The notes below the pieces were generated by a model. It had not been told where the DNA came from and searched no databases. It saw only the letters and a list, made by a program, of their open reading frames with translations. Positions 867 through 41,410 of a stretch of 64,000 bases of DNA are shown piece by piece; within the stretch, counting starts at the first letter, position 1, and every line of letters starts with the position of its first letter. Location: the NCBI GenBank assembly GCA_965223665.1, contig OZ245011.1, positions 2,848,001-2,912,000 of the forward strand, in the 5' to 3' direction. This DNA comes from Nitrospinaceae bacterium. GTDB lineage: Bacteria > Nitrospinota > Nitrospinia > Nitrospinales > Nitrospinaceae. The position numbers and the translations under genes are program-made.

Positions 867-2198
867 ATGAAACAGGTCTATTTAGAAACCTTTGGTTGCC
901 AAATGAACGTCGCTGATTCCGATCGTATGGAACTGTTATTATTTAATTCGGGATATCTGCGTACACCTCATAAAGAAGATGCAGATTTAATATTAATAAA
1001 TACTTGTTCCATTAGAGAAAAGGCAGAACAAAAAGTCTTTTCCTTATTCGGAGGAATGCGCTCTTTAAAAAAAGATAACCCCGATCTAATTTTTGGTTTG
1101 GCTGGGTGTCTGGCCCAACAGGAAAAGGAACAACTTTTCAAAAGAATTCCTCAGTTAGATTTGATAATCGGTCCAGATTCAATTGAAGATATTCCCTGGG
1201 CAGTTGACCAAGTTTCTAGTGAACGTAGGCCAGTAATTTGGACGGAATTCGATGACAAAAGTAATTACTCGATTCCTCAGACAAAAAACAACAAGGCCCC
1301 TGGGCCCAGTGTTTTTGTAAACATTATTAAAGGATGTGATAAGTTTTGTAGCTTTTGTGTAGTTCCTTTTACCCGTGGCCGTGAAAAGTCTCGGGAAGCC
1401 TCGGAAATTTATGAAGAAATACAGCAACTTGTGGATTTAGGTGCGAAGGAATTTATTCTATTAGGCCAAAATGTTAATGCCTATGGAAAAAGAGGGATGC
1501 AACAACCTGTTGCCTTTCATGAATTACTTTATAAGGTTTCTGAAATTCCCGGTGTAGAGCGATTAAGATTCACGACTAGTCACCCCAGAGATTTTACGCG
1601 AGATTTAATTTTAGCTTATCGGGATATTCCTAACTTAATGAATCATCTTCACCTTCCGGTTCAAAGTGGTAATAATCGGGTTCTAGAAATTATGCGCCGT
1701 AACCATACTGTAGAAGAATACTTAGCTCTCATTGAAGAACTTAAATCTGAAGTTCCAGGCATTGCATTATCAACAGATATTATTGTTGGGTTTCCAAGTG
1801 AAACTAAAAATGAATTTGAAGATACATTAAATTTAATGAAAACTGTGGGATTCAATAATAGCTACATGTTCTCTTATAGTCCACGGCCCAACACACCAGC
1901 ACTTGAATTCGAAGATACTGTTTCTGAAGAAGAAAAAAAAGCACGTCTTCAGCAAACCATTAATTTGCAAAATCAATTAACTGAAAATCAAGGTATAAGT
2001 TTTTTGGGCAAGCAAGTGGAAGTTTTGATAGAAAGTAAAACAAACCGCAATCAAATGAATTTTAAAGGAAGAAATCCCGAGTATTGGATGGTTCTCTTTA
2101 AAGGCGGCGAAGACTGTTTAAAACCTGGAGATATAGTCACGGTTGCTGTGGAATCAGTTTCAGGTCATGTTTTACACGGGTCTCTCGTCGATCAATAA
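867..2198 (+). CDS. miaB: tRNA-2-methylthio-N6-dimethylallyladenosine synthase MiaB
   Basis: TFGCQMN, NTCSIREKAE, GCLAQ; radical SAM motif CDKFCSFC; C-terminal TRAM domain. Confidence 0.97.
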   Translation: MKQVYLETFGCQMNVADSDRMELLLFNSGYLRTPHKEDADLILINTCSIREKAEQKVFSLFGGMRSLKKDNPDLIFGLAGCLAQQEKEQLFKRIPQLDLIIGPDSIEDIPWAVDQVSSERRPVIWTEFDDKSNYSIPQTKNNKAPGPSVFVNIIKGCDKFCSFCVVPFTRGREKSREASEIYEEIQQLVDLGAKEFILLGQNVNAYGKRGMQQPVAFHELLYKVSEIPGVERLRFTTSHPRDFTRDLILAYRDIPNLMNHLHLPVQSGNNRVLEIMRRNHTVEEYLALIEELKSEVPGIALSTDIIVGFPSETKNEFEDTLNLMKTVGFNNSYMFSYSPRPNTPALEFEDTVSEEEKKARLQQTINLQNQLTENQGISFLGKQVEVLIESKTNRNQMNFKGRNPEYWMVLFKGGEDCLKPGDIVTVAVESVSGHVLHGSLVDQ

Positions 2199-3640
2199 AT
2201 ACCCAACCGGTAATAAATATCTTCTTCTAGTCGATCCAAATTAGGTTGCACCATATGGACAGCCATTCGCATATCCCGAATACTTTTAATTTCAGGAGGG
2301 GTATCTCTTTGCGACAAATTGGTTAATGCCTCTAAACAAAAAGTATCTAATTCGGCCAATTGTTCAATAATTTCTTCAGGAAGATCTTCCAAGTTAACTA
2401 AATTTACTTCTAAAAATCGCATCATTTCTATTAAACGAATTTTTACGGAGACAACGCTTTTCCTAATTTTTGAAATCAATATAGATTCCGGTGATTCTAG
2501 TTCCTCATAAATTTGGTGAAGAAGTTTTCTTAACAATCGATAAAAAGCATTACTTTGCCTCTGATTAAAAAAACAATCTTTTTTCGCACCAAATAAAAGA
2601 TCAAAAATCGTTTTAATCTCGAATCCTTGATCATCCAGAAGCGTAATAAGGATGGCCTTAAATTCATTTTCTGTTATGGCCAAACCCATGTCTTCAAAAA
2701 TATTTTGTAAGGATCCTGTACGGCCTACAGGTTTTTTCTTAATGACTTCAAAAACTGAATCCAAGTTACTTTCTGAAGCTTGCGGTAAAAATTGAATTTC
2801 ACCACTAGGTCCTCTACCTAAAGTAAAAGAAGTAATAAATTCTGTAAAACTTATTAGAGAAAAAGCAGAGGCAAAATTATCGAGATCTTGAAATGAATAA
2901 AACAGATAGAGCAACTGTTTCTCCAAACTGGCAAATTGGAATTTAGGATGCTCACAAAACTGACCTAAAGTTTTTTCTAATTGAATATAAAAATATCTTA
3001 ACTTTAATTGATCTTGTAGCTGATCCTTATTCTTATAGGGCTGAACCTCAAACAGTCCTTGGTCAAAATCTTTCAAACAAATTTTTAGAGCATCACTTAT
3101 ATCCCGGTTAATTTCCTTAAAATATTTCTTTAGATCCCAAATGGTTAAGTCTACTTTACTTTTTCCAGGCACCCACGGGTTTACAATTATATGATCCGGA
3201 AAATGACGTTGGCTGGAATATTGATAAAAAGGCATCACCTCATCGATAAAAAAAGATTTTTTCTTCTTTGGAATTTCCTCTCCATTTTGATCTATTAACT
3301 TTATTTGAGATTCTTGTAACTCAACTGATAAAAAGGGAATAAAACGATGACCGGCTAGAAGAATTTTTCGATCTTTTTCAAATTTACTCAATTCAATTAC
3401 GATTGGCATGGATCCAATATGTTGAAATACTGCTGAATAAGGTACATAGCTTTTTTGATCGATTCCAATTAAAAAATCATGGTCGAATAGTTTCTCCCTA
3501 AGATCATTTAATGTTGAGGGGGCAATTCGACGATGCCAATGTTCCTGAATTCTGGAAACAAATTCATCTGCGGTAAATGGAGCCTGCGAATCTCTTATTA
3601 AATTTTCTGCTAATTTATGAAGGGTGAGCCGCTTTGTCAT
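2192..3640 (-). CDS. Hypothetical protein (482 aa)
   Basis: Long ORF with AT-rich coding bias, convergent with miaB (7 bp overlap); no motif recognised. Confidence 0.8.
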   Translation of the reverse strand: MTKRLTLHKLAENLIRDSQAPFTADEFVSRIQEHWHRRIAPSTLNDLREKLFDHDFLIGIDQKSYVPYSAVFQHIGSMPIVIELSKFEKDRKILLAGHRFIPFLSVELQESQIKLIDQNGEEIPKKKKSFFIDEVMPFYQYSSQRHFPDHIIVNPWVPGKSKVDLTIWDLKKYFKEINRDISDALKICLKDFDQGLFEVQPYKNKDQLQDQLKLRYFYIQLEKTLGQFCEHPKFQFASLEKQLLYLFYSFQDLDNFASAFSLISFTEFITSFTLGRGPSGEIQFLPQASESNLDSVFEVIKKKPVGRTGSLQNIFEDMGLAITENEFKAILITLLDDQGFEIKTIFDLLFGAKKDCFFNQRQSNAFYRLLRKLLHQIYEELESPESILISKIRKSVVSVKIRLIEMMRFLEVNLVNLEDLPEEIIEQLAELDTFCLEALTNLSQRDTPPEIKSIRDMRMAVHMVQPNLDRLEEDIYYRLGIY

Positions 3641-3997
3641 GGGCAGAAGGAGGAATGATTGGAATTCAATAATTTTTTATTAAGGCTGATCTGATAACTC
3701 ATCAACCTGGAAGGTCCAATACTTACAATTTTTAACGGGGTTGATGGTAACACAAAAAGCTATTGCTGTTAAATATTTTATGGGAGATATAATGAACTGA
3801 TTCAAAAAACCATTTTTTTTAGAAAAGAAAAATAAATTCACTCCCCCAAGTCTTAATAAAACAAAGGCTAATTAAGAAAATATTAAATTTTAAGTTCTAT
3901 AATGGACCGCTAAATAATAAAACCATTGATTTTATTCCTTAGAATTAGGTAAATTTAAATCATAAAATAAACAAAATAGTTATTTGGAAAGGGAAAA

Positions 3998-4258
3998 ATG
4001 ATGTCTCATCAACACGATATCGAAATCACTTATCGAAGAATATTTAATAGACTTAAAACCCGTAAAAAGTTTTCAATTCAAGCCATCGAAGGAGAAAAAG
4101 TAACCATTGAGCAAGATGAAGAAATTTGTGGTCAGAAAGAACCTAGAACTTTTGTTTTTAATAGTGAAAAAGAACTTGAAGAATTTGTAACTCAAGAAAA
4201 TCAGATTGAACGGGATATCGAAGGCCAACTTTCTGGCGACCAAATGCCCTATAGGTAA
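3998..4258 (+). CDS. Hypothetical small acidic protein
   Basis: 86-aa ORF, purine-rich RBS (AAAGGGAAAA), fills an intergenic gap. Confidence 0.75.
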   Translation: MMSHQHDIEITYRRIFNRLKTRKKFSIQAIEGEKVTIEQDEEICGQKEPRTFVFNSEKELEEFVTQENQIERDIEGQLSGDQMPYR

Positions 4259-4284
4259 AATTGATAAAAATTAAAGAAATGGAT

Positions 4285-4863
4285 TCATTTCTTGACCTTC
4301 CAAGATCCGTCGGTCATTTGAACTTTTTCACCCGATTTTGCATTGTCTCTATTGAGGCTAGCTGAAATAGACTGAACTTTTGGAAGGTCTCCTTCAGAAA
4401 AGTGGGTATTGGTGGCCAATATTCTTTCGTAAATTGCCATCCTGTCTTCATTTTCTTCTTGGACCAAAGCCATAACAAATTTTTTAAATTTAACATTCTT
4501 TTTGGTCTGAGGAGTTTCGAAAAATTTTAACAATCCTCTATTGGATTCCCCTACACATCCGATCTTTTTAAATCGTTGAATATCATCATGATTAAATTCC
4601 TGCCTTTGTTTAGCTCTAATGGCTTTTAACTTTCCAGGAGGAATTTCAGAGACACTCTTTAATTTACCGTTTTCATCTACAGATCTGACGGAAGCTAAAA
4701 GAATTACATCGTTGCCAATCTCCTCGTAACTTCCTAAAACCTGGTTCTCTAAAGCCGTTTTTTGGTCAACCACAGTGACATTCACATCCGCTAAGGAACC
4801 ACCGCATCCAGAAAATAAAATCACGGAAGAAAATAAAATTAATATTTTTTGACGAATCCTCAT
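4285..4863 (-). CDS. Lipoprotein, DUF1318/YdbL-like
   Basis: Lipobox FSGC; GESNRG, EN.DR..IY and Q..DG.W..K ending typical of DUF1318. Confidence 0.75.
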   Translation of the reverse strand: MRIRQKILILFSSVILFSGCGGSLADVNVTVVDQKTALENQVLGSYEEIGNDVILLASVRSVDENGKLKSVSEIPPGKLKAIRAKQRQEFNHDDIQRFKKIGCVGESNRGLLKFFETPQTKKNVKFKKFVMALVQEENEDRMAIYERILATNTHFSEGDLPKVQSISASLNRDNAKSGEKVQMTDGSWKVKK

Positions 4864-4902
4864 TTTGTCTCTTAAAAAAATTCTAATAAATTCATTAAAT
4901 CG

Positions 4903-6171
4903 TTAATTAAATCTCCGAAGAACAATCGCCGAGTTTTTGGATCCAAATGAAATACAATTGCTTATGGCAACATTGATTTTTTTTTCTCTTGCTTCATTAG
5001 CAATATAATCCATATCACATTCCGGATCCGGATGTTCTATATTAATTGTAGGTGTAAGCAGCCCTTTGGATAATGACAAGGCAGTCACAGAAATTCCTAA
5101 AGCCCCAGAAGCTCCTTGAGGATGTCCAATCATAGATTTGGTAGAGCTAACAGGTACCTGCATTGCAAATCCATTTAAGGCTTGTTTGACAGCAAATGTC
5201 TCTATTCGATCATTCATGACCGTGGAGGTTCCATGAAAGTTTATGTAGTTAATATCTTCTTCATTTATTTGGGCATCCTTCATTGCCAATCTCAAAGCTC
5301 GAGTCGATTGCTTTCCATCTGGCATAATGGCAACACGATGATATGCATCACAAGTTGTTCCATAACCAATCATTTCTGCATAAATCGAAGAACCCCTTTT
5401 TTTTGCATGCTCCAGTTCTTCCAGAATAAACATCCAACTTCCCTCAGCCAATACAAACCCCTCTCGATCCCTGTTAAAGGGACGCGATCCTCTTTCAGGA
5501 TCTTCATTAAAATGAATGGGATTGGCTTTCATCCTTTCAAAACCTGTCATCATGGCGGGAGTTACACAGGCCTCCACTCCACCGGTTAAAAACCAATCTT
5601 CTTGTCCAAACCGAATCGCGTTAAAGGCATAACCCATCGCATCTGTGGAGCTGGTACACCCGTTTGAAATAACATGGCTACGGCCTTGTATTCCGAACTT
5701 CATTGAAACTTCACTTGAAAGCATTCCAACTAACGAATTAGAAATGGCATAGGGGCTAATTTTCTTTTTTTGATCCGAATAAAAAAAATTAAATTGCTTT
5801 TCAGAAAAATCAAAACCAGAGCCCCCTGTACCAACTAAAACTCCCAAGCTTTCCTGATCTTCCTCAGAAAATTCGCTAAAATCAATCCCGGCATCATTTA
5901 ATGCTTCCTGAGAAGCAGCCACACATAAGGGTACCGTCCTGGGAAGTTTTTTCAAATCCTGACCCGAATAATATTGAGTAGGGTCAAACTCTGAAACTTC
6001 ACCCGCAATTTGACATTCAAGACCATCGGGATTAAAACTTTGAATTTTGTTTATTCCACTGATACCGTTACAAGTATTTTCCCAAAAAACTTCTTTGCCC
6101 ATTCCATTGGGACTCATTACTCCGATACCAGTCAGCACCACTCTGCGAGGAAACATAAATATTCGTATCAA
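4903..6171 (-). CDS. fabF: Beta-ketoacyl-ACP synthase II family
   Basis: RRVVLTGIG; catalytic Cys (GCTSS); His in HGTST and KSMIGH; SFG near C-terminus. Confidence 0.88.
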   Translation of the reverse strand: MIRIFMFPRRVVLTGIGVMSPNGMGKEVFWENTCNGISGINKIQSFNPDGLECQIAGEVSEFDPTQYYSGQDLKKLPRTVPLCVAASQEALNDAGIDFSEFSEEDQESLGVLVGTGGSGFDFSEKQFNFFYSDQKKKISPYAISNSLVGMLSSEVSMKFGIQGRSHVISNGCTSSTDAMGYAFNAIRFGQEDWFLTGGVEACVTPAMMTGFERMKANPIHFNEDPERGSRPFNRDREGFVLAEGSWMFILEELEHAKKRGSSIYAEMIGYGTTCDAYHRVAIMPDGKQSTRALRLAMKDAQINEEDINYINFHGTSTVMNDRIETFAVKQALNGFAMQVPVSSTKSMIGHPQGASGALGISVTALSLSKGLLTPTINIEHPDPECDMDYIANEAREKKINVAISNCISFGSKNSAIVLRRFN

Positions 6172-36329: not shown

Positions 36330-38126
36330 CTACTTGGCAGTCAGTTCAAAGTTTGCACCTGTATTAGCTCCAGCAGTCACCGTAATTTCCTGGCTCATCT
36401 CTCCAACATAAGGATGCCATGCCGTTAACCAATAAGTACCTGCAGGGATTTGGTCGATCTTAAATGTTCCGTCTGCAGCACTTATAGAATAATAAGGATT
36501 CCATACTACTCTTGCATCAGCTTCCATAAAATTATGTTGATCACATTGTAGGAAGAAATGTTTATCCTTCTTTGGTTTAAACCTTTTAAATGATTTTGTG
36601 ACGTCGGTGATATCCCCCTTAGAAGGCAATGGTTTATTGAACAACGTCTTTCGGTTTGCTCCAACCACGGAGTATCCATGTGGGTTGTGCAAAATATTAA
36701 GATCTTGATTGGTAATGGTAAGTAATCCTTCCTTAACACCCTTCGGAGTTTTTCGTACGATAGAAACTTTAGGAAAGATATCACAGGTTTTAAAATCAAA
36801 GTTTTTAGTATCCTTAGACCAAGCCTTACCTTTCTCAATATTTTGTATGAAAACCACTGCATCCTTCAATTTACCATTGGTGGCAATCACTTTAGTCCTT
36901 AATCGTGTATTACCCTTAGCATCTGGATGAGTAGCACAAAATTCAGAATTTTTTCCCTTACTCAAATCTTCCAATATTGGGGCGGGTGGGTCACCTATTA
37001 ATTGAATCATTCCACTGATGGAACCCCCATTATTCACCGCTTCTTCTGAATATTTTTTATTTGGTTTTACATCTTTCGGGAGCTTACTCACCGCATTAGA
37101 AGGAGTAGAAGGTTTAGCAGGCGCCATAGCAGGCGGCGGTTCGGTAGCTGCAGCCATTTTGTTTTCTGGTTTAGGAGTTGGTTCTGCAGTTGCTTTATCT
37201 TCAGAAGTGGAACTTCCCATATAGGTAGACCTAATATATTTGACCACATCCCAAATGTCTTGATCCTTTAACGTTTTTTTATGGGCCACCATTCCAGTAC
37301 CTGGTGATCCATTTTTTATGATCCAAAACATTTGACCCGGGGAAACACTTTCCATAGTTTCTGCGCAGGTAAAGTTTCTGGGTTGAGGTTTTAATGCCGC
37401 ACCCAATTTTCCTTTTCCATCCCCATTGTCTCCATGACACATTTTACAAGCCATGGGTTTTGCAGACTTATTATAAATCTTCTTTCCGTTTTCTAAATTG
37501 GCGCTCGCGGTTTTATCCATATTTGCAATATTAGACGGAGCTCCTTTGGTTTTTCTCTTTTGAGGACATGGACCAGAAGCTTTCACCACTTTGTCAACCG
37601 TATCTTTCTTTGGTTCTGCAGGAGATTGGACTTCTGCTTTAGGATCAATAGATTCAGTAGGAGCCACTGGCTTGGACTCCACCATAGCTTCAGCTTTTTC
37701 TTCTTTCATTGGAGTTTCAGCTTTTTGCTCGATGGGTTCTGGTGGAGAAACGGGTTGGCTTTCAGTGACAATTTCAGTTTTTTCAGGTGCCTCATCCATA
37801 GCAGGTGGTTCAGATGGAGTTGCTTCTACAGATAACTCTTCCTTCTTTACTGAAAACAATAAATCTTTGGTATCTTTATCCAATTTTCCACTGGCAGAAA
37901 TTCCGTTTTCTTCCTGAAATTGTTTTAATGCTCTTTCTGTTTTAGGTCCCCATAGCCCATCTACCGGCCCTGGGTTCAGGCCTTTTTCAATCAAGGATTC
38001 TTGAGCCTTTTTGACCAGGGTATCTGCCAAGGCAGAAACCACCCCAATTTGAAGGATTAAAAAACTAATGACAGTTATAATAAAAATTCTATGACCCAGA
38101 GTAGTTTGAAATCTAGAATTATTCAC
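36330..38126 (-). CDS. Exported multidomain protein: peptidoglycan-binding domain + monoheme cytochrome c + cupredoxin-like/carboxypeptidase-regulatory-like domain
   Basis: Signal peptide; PG_binding_1 (GPVDGLWGPKTERALKQFQ); CKMCH with FWIIKNGSPGTGM; HNPH...CDQHNFM. Confidence 0.8.
   Translation of the reverse strand: MNNSRFQTTLGHRIFIITVISFLILQIGVVSALADTLVKKAQESLIEKGLNPGPVDGLWGPKTERALKQFQEENGISASGKLDKDTKDLLFSVKKEELSVEATPSEPPAMDEAPEKTEIVTESQPVSPPEPIEQKAETPMKEEKAEAMVESKPVAPTESIDPKAEVQSPAEPKKDTVDKVVKASGPCPQKRKTKGAPSNIANMDKTASANLENGKKIYNKSAKPMACKMCHGDNGDGKGKLGAALKPQPRNFTCAETMESVSPGQMFWIIKNGSPGTGMVAHKKTLKDQDIWDVVKYIRSTYMGSSTSEDKATAEPTPKPENKMAAATEPPPAMAPAKPSTPSNAVSKLPKDVKPNKKYSEEAVNNGGSISGMIQLIGDPPAPILEDLSKGKNSEFCATHPDAKGNTRLRTKVIATNGKLKDAVVFIQNIEKGKAWSKDTKNFDFKTCDIFPKVSIVRKTPKGVKEGLLTITNQDLNILHNPHGYSVVGANRKTLFNKPLPSKGDITDVTKSFKRFKPKKDKHFFLQCDQHNFMEADARVVWNPYYSISAADGTFKIDQIPAGTYWLTAWHPYVGEMSQEITVTAGANTGANFELTAK
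37632..37784 (-). repeat. Degenerate tandem 69-bp repeat (84-bp period) in the Pro/Glu linker
   Basis: EKTEIVTESQPVSPPEPIEQKAE (37716-37784) versus EKAEAMVESKPVAPTESIDPKAE (37632-37700). Confidence 0.7.
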
Positions 38127-39591: not shown

Positions 39592-41064
39592 TTAAAAAGA
39601 AAAAGCAATGGATATATACGAATATAATGTGTTCCCCAACCTTGGTGCCAAAGGAGCCATTTTTTGAAAATCACCATCTATTCGATAAACTGTACCTCCT
39701 TCCAGTTGGGCATTGCCCATTATTTGCCATCTTCCCCGGATAAAAATTTGGTGGCCAAGAAATGAACCTGAGTTACCTGTTGAATCTTGCAAACCAGAAT
39801 TTCCAGACCATAAATCGGTTTTGGACGCGAGCCAAAAAACACGGTAATGGAAATATGCAGTCAATTGTGAAATAGGTTTAACGGTAAACTTAATACCCGG
39901 ACCGTGAATGTTGGACCGAATAAATGCCTGATGGATACTGGTAGGCCCAAAGTCGAAAACTGAGGCTCCAAAAAGAGTATCGAACTTTCCATTTTTTTTA
40001 TCGTTCGGATTGCTATCTCCACTGGCATAATCATAAGCTAAAATTAGTCGAGGCGACCATTTACAATGGAAGCTAAACCCAATTTCTAAATGATGAAAAT
40101 GAGCGAAATGATTTAGATCCAGAGTATCAATTTTAGAGTTGGTGGCACGGGATTTTCCGAATTGGAGAATCGACTCCCATTCATAATCCAACTGACCTTT
40201 TTGTTTTGGGTGGTAAATGCGAAAACCTGATGAATACAGTTTACGATTAGGGGTAGCCACATATTGGCTATCATCTTCATGGTAACCAATTAAATAGATC
40301 TCACCCTTGTGATTGAAAGGGAGATTGGAGGAAGAAATAAATAAGCCCCATAAAATTCGATCAAAACTTTCACTGTCAAAAGATACATCATTATTTAATA
40401 AACGGTTTTGAGAATGGGGTTTACGGTTCACCGGTAAAGTAATAAAAATGCGAAATTGATTTCCACTTTTTGACTGCCAAATTCCATCTAACCCTGTAAA
40501 AGCGTTTTTGGTATTTCGAAATCGATTCCGGGCAACCAAGCGTCGCTTTCCAACATCCATTGTTAAACGCCCACCTCTTAAAAAACTGTGGCTACCGATC
40601 TGAAAGAGATCATTTGAATACAACTGAAGATTAGCTTCCAAAAGTTCTACCGAATTTACAATTGAAGTGTTAATAGGCGTTCCAGAATCTGCTAATTCTG
40701 CCCTCGAATCCTGAAACTCTAATTGAATTCTGAATATTGAATTGAGATGTAACGTGGCTTGAATTAACGTCCGCAAGGATAAAACTTGATCACTTCCTCT
40801 GGCGCCTGATCGGAAAGGGTGAATCAAAGTTTCATAGCGAGTTCGATTTTGAAGAGAAAGTGACAACCAACTTGGTAGAAATCCATTTTTATTTAAAGTA
40901 AAAAGAGGTTCTAAAGGACCTAAAACCTTATCTTCAAAAATGTAAGGTTTTGGAAAATTATTTAAACTGGAATTTAGGGAGTTTTTAGCCCAACAACAGG
41001 AGGAGAACCAAAATAAAAATATTAAACACCACCCACTAAATTTTTTAAATCGCTTAACCATCAA
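39592..41064 (-). CDS. Alginate export (AlgE-like) family outer-membrane beta-barrel
   Basis: Signal peptide; R.RYE, QDSR, GR...G.RRLVARN.FRN..NAF.G, ASGD..P.D....FDTLFG; C-terminal Phe. Confidence 0.85.
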   Translation of the reverse strand: MMVKRFKKFSGWCLIFLFWFSSCCWAKNSLNSSLNNFPKPYIFEDKVLGPLEPLFTLNKNGFLPSWLSLSLQNRTRYETLIHPFRSGARGSDQVLSLRTLIQATLHLNSIFRIQLEFQDSRAELADSGTPINTSIVNSVELLEANLQLYSNDLFQIGSHSFLRGGRLTMDVGKRRLVARNRFRNTKNAFTGLDGIWQSKSGNQFRIFITLPVNRKPHSQNRLLNNDVSFDSESFDRILWGLFISSSNLPFNHKGEIYLIGYHEDDSQYVATPNRKLYSSGFRIYHPKQKGQLDYEWESILQFGKSRATNSKIDTLDLNHFAHFHHLEIGFSFHCKWSPRLILAYDYASGDSNPNDKKNGKFDTLFGASVFDFGPTSIHQAFIRSNIHGPGIKFTVKPISQLTAYFHYRVFWLASKTDLWSGNSGLQDSTGNSGSFLGHQIFIRGRWQIMGNAQLEGGTVYRIDGDFQKMAPLAPRLGNTLYSYISIAFSF

Positions 41065-41074
41065 TTCTAAATAT

Positions 41075-41132
41075 AGCGTTATATAAATAGGTATATTTCG
41101 AAAATTCGTTATATATTATTATATATAACGAT
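41075..41132. promoter_or_regulatory. Two tandem ModE-type operators
   Basis: CGTTATATA-TTATTA-TATATAACG (41107-41130, perfect palindrome) and CGTTATATA-AATAGG-TATATTTCG (41077-41100); ModE consensus ATCGNTATATA-N6-TATATANCGAT. Confidence 0.75.
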
Positions 41133-41191
41133 AAAGTCAAACATTTTTAGACTTATAAAAAAATAATTAAGAATAAAAGATTTTATACAAT

Positions 41192-41410
41192 TTATTTAGG
41201 TAATTTAGAATTTTTGGGTTTTTTATGCGTATCGGCAAAAAAAACAATTACCGCAAGGATTAAAATCAAGGCCAGGATTAGCCAAGATTGAGTATTTTCT
41301 TTCCGAACTTCAAGAATATCATAGGTAAGAGTTCCATCAATTAGCAGGGCCAGAAATATGATAATTAATAATATAAGAAACTTTTTCAAAGTATAAACCT
41401 TACCAATCAA
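41192..41410 (-). CDS. Small two-TM membrane protein
   Basis: Two hydrophobic helices and a basic tail; GAGG upstream of the TTG start. Confidence 0.55.
   Translation of the reverse strand: MIGKVYTLKKFLILLIIIFLALLIDGTLTYDILEVRKENTQSWLILALILILAVIVFFADTHKKPKNSKLPK

Follow-up and report, generated by a model that had tools for sequence, protein, structure and literature searches.

A probable ModE-repressed outer-membrane channel for molybdate in Nitrospinaceae, with tungstate-linked relatives

The uptake of molybdate and tungstate across the inner membrane by ModABC and TupABC is well described. Whether a barrel annotated as an alginate exporter could serve the same ions at the outer membrane is the question raised by a locus of a Nitrospinaceae bacterium, which lies in a stretch of 64,000 nucleotides that was analysed as a whole (the window). 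Here, an open reading frame for a PF13372 outer-membrane protein occupies 39592-41064 of the minus strand; it encodes 489-490 amino acids, with TTG at 41064 and ATG at 41061, and ends in Phe. The original prediction described an orphan AlgE-family barrel with no alginate genes nearby, derepressed under molybdenum starvation and importing molybdate or another oxyanion. The description of the gene and its surroundings was borne out. The protein matches PF13372 (Alginate_exp) with an E-value of 3e-44 and 151.8 bits against a curated cut-off of 25.2, and no alginate or polysaccharide genes occur among the 10 neighbours scanned, nor among the recurring neighbours of relatives. A genome-wide search for AlgX gives no verdict, as its positive control was silent. 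At E up to 0.001 Pfam returned PF13372 only, and PF07396 (OprP/OprO) gave no match. The minus strand of the window also holds a small reading frame at 41192-41410 (62-72 amino acids, two hydrophobic stretches), which sits beyond the promoter on its upstream side and has a conserved counterpart in G001, a genome of the same genus, and another at 36330-38126 for a 598-residue protein with peptidoglycan-binding, cytochrome c and carboxypeptidase-regulatory-like domains.

The promoter region of the porin contains two ModE-type operators, for which no strand is assigned. Operator 1 (box 1, 41107-41130) is palindromic, with two arms of 9 bp flanking 6 bp, CGTTATATA-TTATTA-TATATAACG, with AT next to it at 41131-41132. 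The weaker operator 2 (box 2, 41077-41100) lies 30 bp downstream of it and reads CGTTATATA-AATAGG-TATATTTCG, with one of the 16 core positions mismatched. On the minus strand, a sigma-70 -35 hexamer, TTGACT, is predicted from the sequence at 41135-41140, and a consensus scan places a -10 hexamer, TAATAT, at 41113-41118 after a 16-bp spacer (9 of 12 matches). This -10 hexamer falls inside operator 1, so that box 1 covers the promoter spacer and the predicted -10, and box 2 lies over the predicted transcription start and the 5' leader; the promoter scan alone is not significant (12 found against 9.5 expected). All the positions originally reported, for a perfect palindrome at 41107-41132, its copy 30 bp away at 41077-41100 and the TTGACT hexamer, were confirmed. 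The resemblance to the ModE operator also holds: of the 20 specified positions of the consensus ATCGNTATATA-N6-TATATANCGAT given in PMC545781, box 1 fits 19 and departs from one. Allowing at most one mismatch, the window contains two matches, whereas 100 dinucleotide shuffles of it averaged 0.00. Rfam gave no match around the locus at gathering thresholds, and therefore no known Moco riboswitch is present there.

The same operator is found at the genes for molybdate transport. Throughout the 4.35-Mb genome, only three sites have at most one mismatch in 16, namely both boxes of the porin and a site at C1:2510316, just upstream of modA, modB and modC and right behind a TTGAC hexamer; each of these three genes scores above its NCBIfam cut-off. 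A check for the box at modABC, which had been suggested together with the original prediction, thus found it at 28.6 bits and in the same position behind TTGAC as the porin box. The scoring matrix was trained on 33 modA-promoter sites of relatives, with the three porin-containing operons of the set left out because the porin box must not judge itself; as the training sites were chosen via the published consensus, the scores do not depend on the porin but do depend on that consensus. Genome-wide, porin box 1 takes the top rank with 31.3 bits, ahead of the modA box at 28.6 bits and porin box 2, in third place, at 15.9 bits. The best score in 60 local shuffles of the chromosome was 24.6, and none reached 28 bits. 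Box 2 is near chance and therefore not significant alone, since sites of at least 15 bits average 1.8 per shuffled chromosome. A site with up to three mismatches was present in 28 of 30 modA upstream regions.

Other genes of interest in the genome carry no box. This applies to the other two PF13372 genes, which are paralogues of the porin, and to an operon at C1:3002631 with a PF00384 match, which we take to be nitrite-oxidoreductase-like from its sequence and gene order. The suggestion that the porin matters for an organism relying on nitrite oxidoreductase can be kept in part: as that operon is unboxed, the link is one of metal demand and not of shared regulation. A site before a ttr-like molybdoenzyme operon (C1:1570270, two mismatches, 12.9 bits) was considered as a third regulon member and rejected, being within chance (6.5 sites of at least 12 bits per shuffle). 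The operon itself (L005, G000:C1:1565021-1570293) consists of an Fe-S subunit, an NrfD-like protein and a 1041-residue TtrA-like protein, and had no match in 60 relatives at E up to 1e-60.

A search for modE, also suggested at the outset, identified a single ModE-type protein in the genome (C1:2333883-2334254). It has 123 amino acids, ends just past the helix-turn-helix (HTH) and matches TIGR00637 at E 2.8e-27 (96.5 bits, just below the 98.5 cut-off). A ModE-type HTH was found in 59 of the 61 genomes searched, 17 of them above the TIGR00637 cut-off, and all 30 ModE relatives examined are short, with 7-20 residues after the HTH domain. The regulator has no C-terminal Mop/TOBE sensing domains; in the whole genome TOBE matches ModC alone. 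By these data the order Nitrospinales has a ModE regulon of small size, probably run by a protein that lacks a metal-binding domain. E. coli ModE, according to PMC11672702, binds molybdate through its C-terminal Mop domains. Judged from its sequence, the short ModE of this genome is unable to sense molybdate in that way. Since it comprises a DNA-binding domain only, neither direct molybdate sensing nor a simple mobility-shift assay with and without molybdate can be assumed, and the molybdenum signal is probably indirect, perhaps molybdenum-cofactor status. The short ModE of Agrobacterium (ModE-S) reportedly binds two boxes at modA and tracks that status. We know of no porin target described for short ModE regulators.

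Across the phylum Nitrospinota, to which the protein relatives are assigned, porin orthologues (at least 47% identity) occur in 25 of the 91 other genomes searched. Named orthologues are also known from the cultured Nitrospina gracilis 3/211 and N. watsonii. A search of 92 phylum genomes gave no orthologue in 66, and the porin is therefore not needed for nitrite oxidation in general. A box is found directly upstream of the orthologue in 13 of the 25 genomes (18-30 bits) and six further orthologues reside in boxed mod operons, in line with the conservation expected from the original prediction. Four of these six form a boxed modA-modB-modC-porin operon (G025, G028, G031, G034), and two form a boxed modA-porin pair that uses the only modA of the genome, with separately boxed modBC elsewhere (G003, G010). 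The other six have neither box nor mod operon (G023, G033, G042, G044, G057, G075), one of them with only about 230 bp of upstream sequence; for a second copy in G012, no upstream DNA is available. In the porin promoter and at all 13 directly boxed orthologues a TTGAC hexamer precedes the box by 2-4 bp, the same layout as at the genome's own modA. An alignment of nine porin promoters with that modA promoter shows hexamer and box as a conserved island in otherwise divergent promoters. The tandem arrangement emphasised by the original prediction fares less well: the pair is present, but box 2 by itself is weak and other genes have tandem boxes too. The porin pair is kept at its 30-bp offset in G001 only, the other 12 of the 13 boxed orthologues having one box, and a tandem spacing of 28-32 bp was seen in 18 of the 31 other boxed loci inspected, for the most part at modA promoters.

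Some further features of gene order within the phylum were noted. Genus g3 (L074, L075, L200, L201, L202; G003, G010, G007) has modA split from modBC, with modBC separately boxed. In G031 (L072) the porin groups with sequences of family f1, and congeners (L070, L071, L073) have a member of another subclade in that operon slot; a replacement in place is possible from the tree position. In genus g2 (G002 L087 7940-9370; G009 L089 4422-5888) the boxed AlgE-like porin is immediately preceded, on its own strand, by a gene for an OprO/P-type porin.

Other porins appear at modABC as well. Twenty modA loci were fetched, 19 from orthologue-free genomes and one from a genome with an unlinked copy, and in 12 of them modABC contains an outer-membrane porin gene or is directly followed by one: Porin_5 in seven and OprO/P in five, two of these also with Porin_5 (ten loci Pfam-confirmed, two via near-identical ends). 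In seven genomes of genus g6 (L204, L205, L208, L210, L213, L214, L218) a Porin_5 (PF16930) gene of about 381 amino acids follows directly after modC, making this a second candidate family of molybdate channels. An oprP-like gene sits between modB and modC in G030, and in G022 (L203, G022:C31:15000-24000, 1240-5082) a 32.7-bit box is followed by an OprO/OprP-family porin, modA, modB and modC. A PstS-like gene comes next in three of the 12 substitute-porin loci, and those porins may therefore serve phosphate. No porin was seen at modABC in eight of the 20 fetched loci and four further loci. The idea that unboxed orthologues lost their box to a replacement porin is unsupported, with a substitute at modABC in none of five such genomes checked. 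At L217 of G049 (1917-3792), genes judged by eye to be Fe-S-subunit-like and NrfD-like lie directly after modABC on the same strand.

Relatives outside the phylum were sampled as the best 80 of at least 486, of which 68 lie outside Nitrospinota and span Gamma- and Alphaproteobacteria, Myxococcota, Planctomycetota, Verrucomicrobiota and others. In this sample, 38 of the 68 loci are tied to molybdenum or tungsten genes or to a box: 30 through a tupA-like gene, two through an HTH-PBP regulator alone, three through modA within 2 kb, two through an ABC-moeA-porin arrangement and one through a 22-bit box. The tupA-like gene directly follows the porin in 20 of its 30 loci within the best-80 sample, most others being tupB-ATPase-tupA clusters. 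The two loci with the order permease-ATPase-moeA-porin include one that continues with an aldehyde ferredoxin oxidoreductase gene. The designation 'tupA-like' was chosen since the one protein scanned had NF041772 as its sole match at E up to 1e-25, with 239 bits against a cut-off of 400; a [TS]TTST motif, presumably the TTTS-type hallmark of TupA, is present in all 30 loci. The remaining 30 distant loci of the best 80 of at least 486 show no clear link to molybdenum or tungsten in the available DNA, some contigs being short.

In the same 68 loci (from the best 80 of at least 486), the specific recurring neighbours are tupA-like, ModE-PBP, tupB and modA; beyond generic ABC ATPases and these Mo/W-type neighbours, no annotated family occurs in more than seven. 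Fusions of a ModE-like HTH with a PBP domain are encoded in 17 of the 68, in 14 divergently from the porin. This divergent HTH-PBP_like fusion is seen in many Gammaproteobacteria (L108, L111, L122, L125, L134, L135, L137-L139, L144-L146, L152, L154). Its operator does not score as a ModE box, and the fusion is a candidate tungstate-responsive regulator. In 13 loci of a paralogous PF13372 subfamily, none of the molybdenum- or tungsten-linked genes listed above occurs and no site exceeds 6.1 bits. In a tree of 88 sequences, including 20 from Nitrospinota (fast IQ-TREE maximum likelihood with SH-aLRT values, midpoint-rooted), the 53 linked members fall into 25 maximal clades, a number that measures breadth and not the count of origins, as kin share labels.

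The predicted structure is that of a channel of the AlgE and Occ type. An AlphaFold2 model of the porin (mean pLDDT 86.7) shows an 18-stranded beta-barrel whose best fold match is AlgE (Z 30.3, rmsd 2.9 over 366 residues, 11% identity), followed by Occ/OprD channels (Z about 27-28, 8-12% identity). The AlgE structures matched are PDB 3RBH, 4AFK and 5D5D, at 11-14% identity. A profile of 67 relatives found no PDB sequence at E up to 1, and the ESM Atlas returned 'alginate export' clusters only. Among the 88 sequences nine arginines are invariant (165, 173, 174, 178, 182, 213, 273, 382, 407) and five more nearly so. Four of the nine invariant ones lie in the long loop that follows strand 5; in barrels of this kind, that loop usually folds into the pore. 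The invariant residues are common to linked and unlinked members, and by a rough alignment the arginine cluster is largely missing in the two paralogues. A complex prediction for the porin with ModA scored 0.00 against a mark of 0.32, which is evidence neither way.

Because its promoter operator is common to modABC, the porin is likely ModE-repressed and likely to admit molybdate when the metal is scarce. In view of the operator and its rank, conservation, the modA-like promoter layout, the operon and neighbourhood links and the predicted fold, we consider it probable that the protein is a ModE-repressed channel for molybdate uptake, with tungstate-linked relatives. Mechanistically, the short ModE would sit on the box over the -10 hexamer and block RNA polymerase when molybdenum is sufficient. 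A shortage, probably sensed indirectly, would derepress the porin and modABC together. Divalent molybdate would then pass an arginine-rich constriction of the barrel, be trapped in the periplasm by ModA and be handed over to ModBC, and this supply would feed molybdoenzymes, the nitrite-oxidoreductase-like enzyme among them. A search of the genome for TupA, whose control responded in 2 of 14, found none; molybdate is therefore the likely cargo here, tungstate not being favoured, and the tupA-linked relatives in other phyla would play the same role for tungstate, their likely cargo.

Several other readings of the locus have to be weighed against this one. That the palindrome arose by chance, or serves a regulator that has nothing to do with molybdenum, could be argued from the AT-rich region, from the near-chance score of box 2 alone and from the fact that binding by a short ModE is only predicted. 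Box 1, however, scores above all shuffles and stays conserved where the promoters around it diverge, and apart from it the genome has a strong site at modABC alone, which leaves this reading with almost no credit. An alginate-type polysaccharide export pore with an incidental box is just as strongly disfavoured: the PF13372 match and AlgE as top structural match speak for it, but the identity to AlgE is as low as 11-14%, the profile of relatives retrieved no PDB sequence, polysaccharide genes are missing from the 10 neighbours scanned and from the recurring neighbours of relatives, and the links to the box and the mod operons are conserved. Somewhat less improbable, yet still quite unlikely, is a porin that answers to molybdenum and does not carry the free ion, importing chelated molybdenum instead or exporting a chelator or binding protein. 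The AlgE fold serves an exporter in Pseudomonas, and a binding protein can be the sole partner (modA-porin in two genomes; porin followed by a tupA-like gene in 20 of the 68 loci from the best 80 of at least 486). For P. aeruginosa, PMC9171197 reports a secreted ModA, with uptake via IcmP. Genes for chelator synthesis, TonB or secretion do not recur near the porin, which argues against such a cargo. Further, an 18-stranded Occ-like barrel is too narrow for a folded protein.

The main rival accepts the porin as a member of the ModE regulon and regards it as a broad anion-selective porin for sulfate, phosphate, nitrite, nitrate and small acids, raised under molybdenum shortage and unselective for molybdate. 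Such breadth would fit the unlinked members, which keep all invariant residues, and the unrelated porins, including phosphate-selective OprO/P, that fill the same slot. One distant copy (L136) follows a SulP sulfate permease gene, and the nearest folds, AlgE and Occ, are anion or carboxylate channels. Against this, the specific neighbours that recur in the 68 loci of the best 80 (of at least 486) are tupA-like, ModE-PBP, tupB and modA, and the arginine cluster is strongly kept in the subfamily and largely absent, by the rough alignment, in two paralogues. We regard a broad porin as unlikely, and as a reading to be taken more seriously than the other three. The molybdate channel can also be generalised: the widespread 'alginate export' subfamily would consist of dedicated molybdenum and tungsten channels that provide the outer-membrane step of ModABC and TupABC, are inherited together with the binding protein as one module and can be exchanged for OprO/P or Porin_5 barrels, and in Nitrospinota a sensor-less ModE would read cofactor status. 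This wider proposal is tentative, and we rate its chance a little below even.

With the E. coli ModE regulon the porin shares the consensus (19 of 20), the promoter overlap and the sharing of the box with modABC; the case differs in having an outer-membrane barrel as presumed target and a regulator without the Mop/TOBE domains described for E. coli ModE in PMC11672702. The HTH-only ModE of about 120 residues resembles the short ModE regulators of Desulfovibrio, for which E. coli-type sites are lacking according to PMC545781, whereas an E. coli-type box is present here. In the literature searched, the one described route for molybdate across the outer membrane is the T6SS route of P. aeruginosa (PMC9171197), which needs a secreted ModA and a different outer-membrane protein, IcmP, in contrast to an AlgE-fold channel under a ModE box. 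AlgE itself shares PF13372 and the predicted 18-stranded fold (Z about 30) with the porin; in addition to the 11-14% identity and the lack of adjoining alginate genes, export of a polymer would be set against a proposed import of a small oxyanion. OprP/OprO and PhoE are phosphate-starvation porins activated by PhoB. Similarly, the porin would be an anion channel co-regulated with a binding protein and an ABC importer under shortage, with PF13372 in place of the PF07396 of OprP/OprO, ModE repression in place of PhoB activation and a different presumed substrate. Occ/OprD channels have the same 18-stranded fold at 8-12% identity and carry small acids; to our knowledge, they have no link to molybdenum or tungsten. 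Box, regulator type and fold are all known already, and the logic parallels that of the phosphate-starvation porins. The open-access literature searched contained no molybdate or tungstate porin and no molybdenum or tungsten role for the PF13372 family; subscription papers and ModE-box surveys may hold a prior mention.

The locus provides a candidate outer-membrane channel for free molybdate and tungstate, backed by regulation and gene order in several phyla. Many proteins whose sole annotation is 'alginate export family' thereby acquire a function that can be tested. In seawater, sulfate is far more abundant than molybdenum. The finding bears on how marine nitrite oxidisers secure molybdenum against this excess and, through the tungstate-linked relatives, on the acquisition of tungsten by methanotrophs and other proteobacteria.
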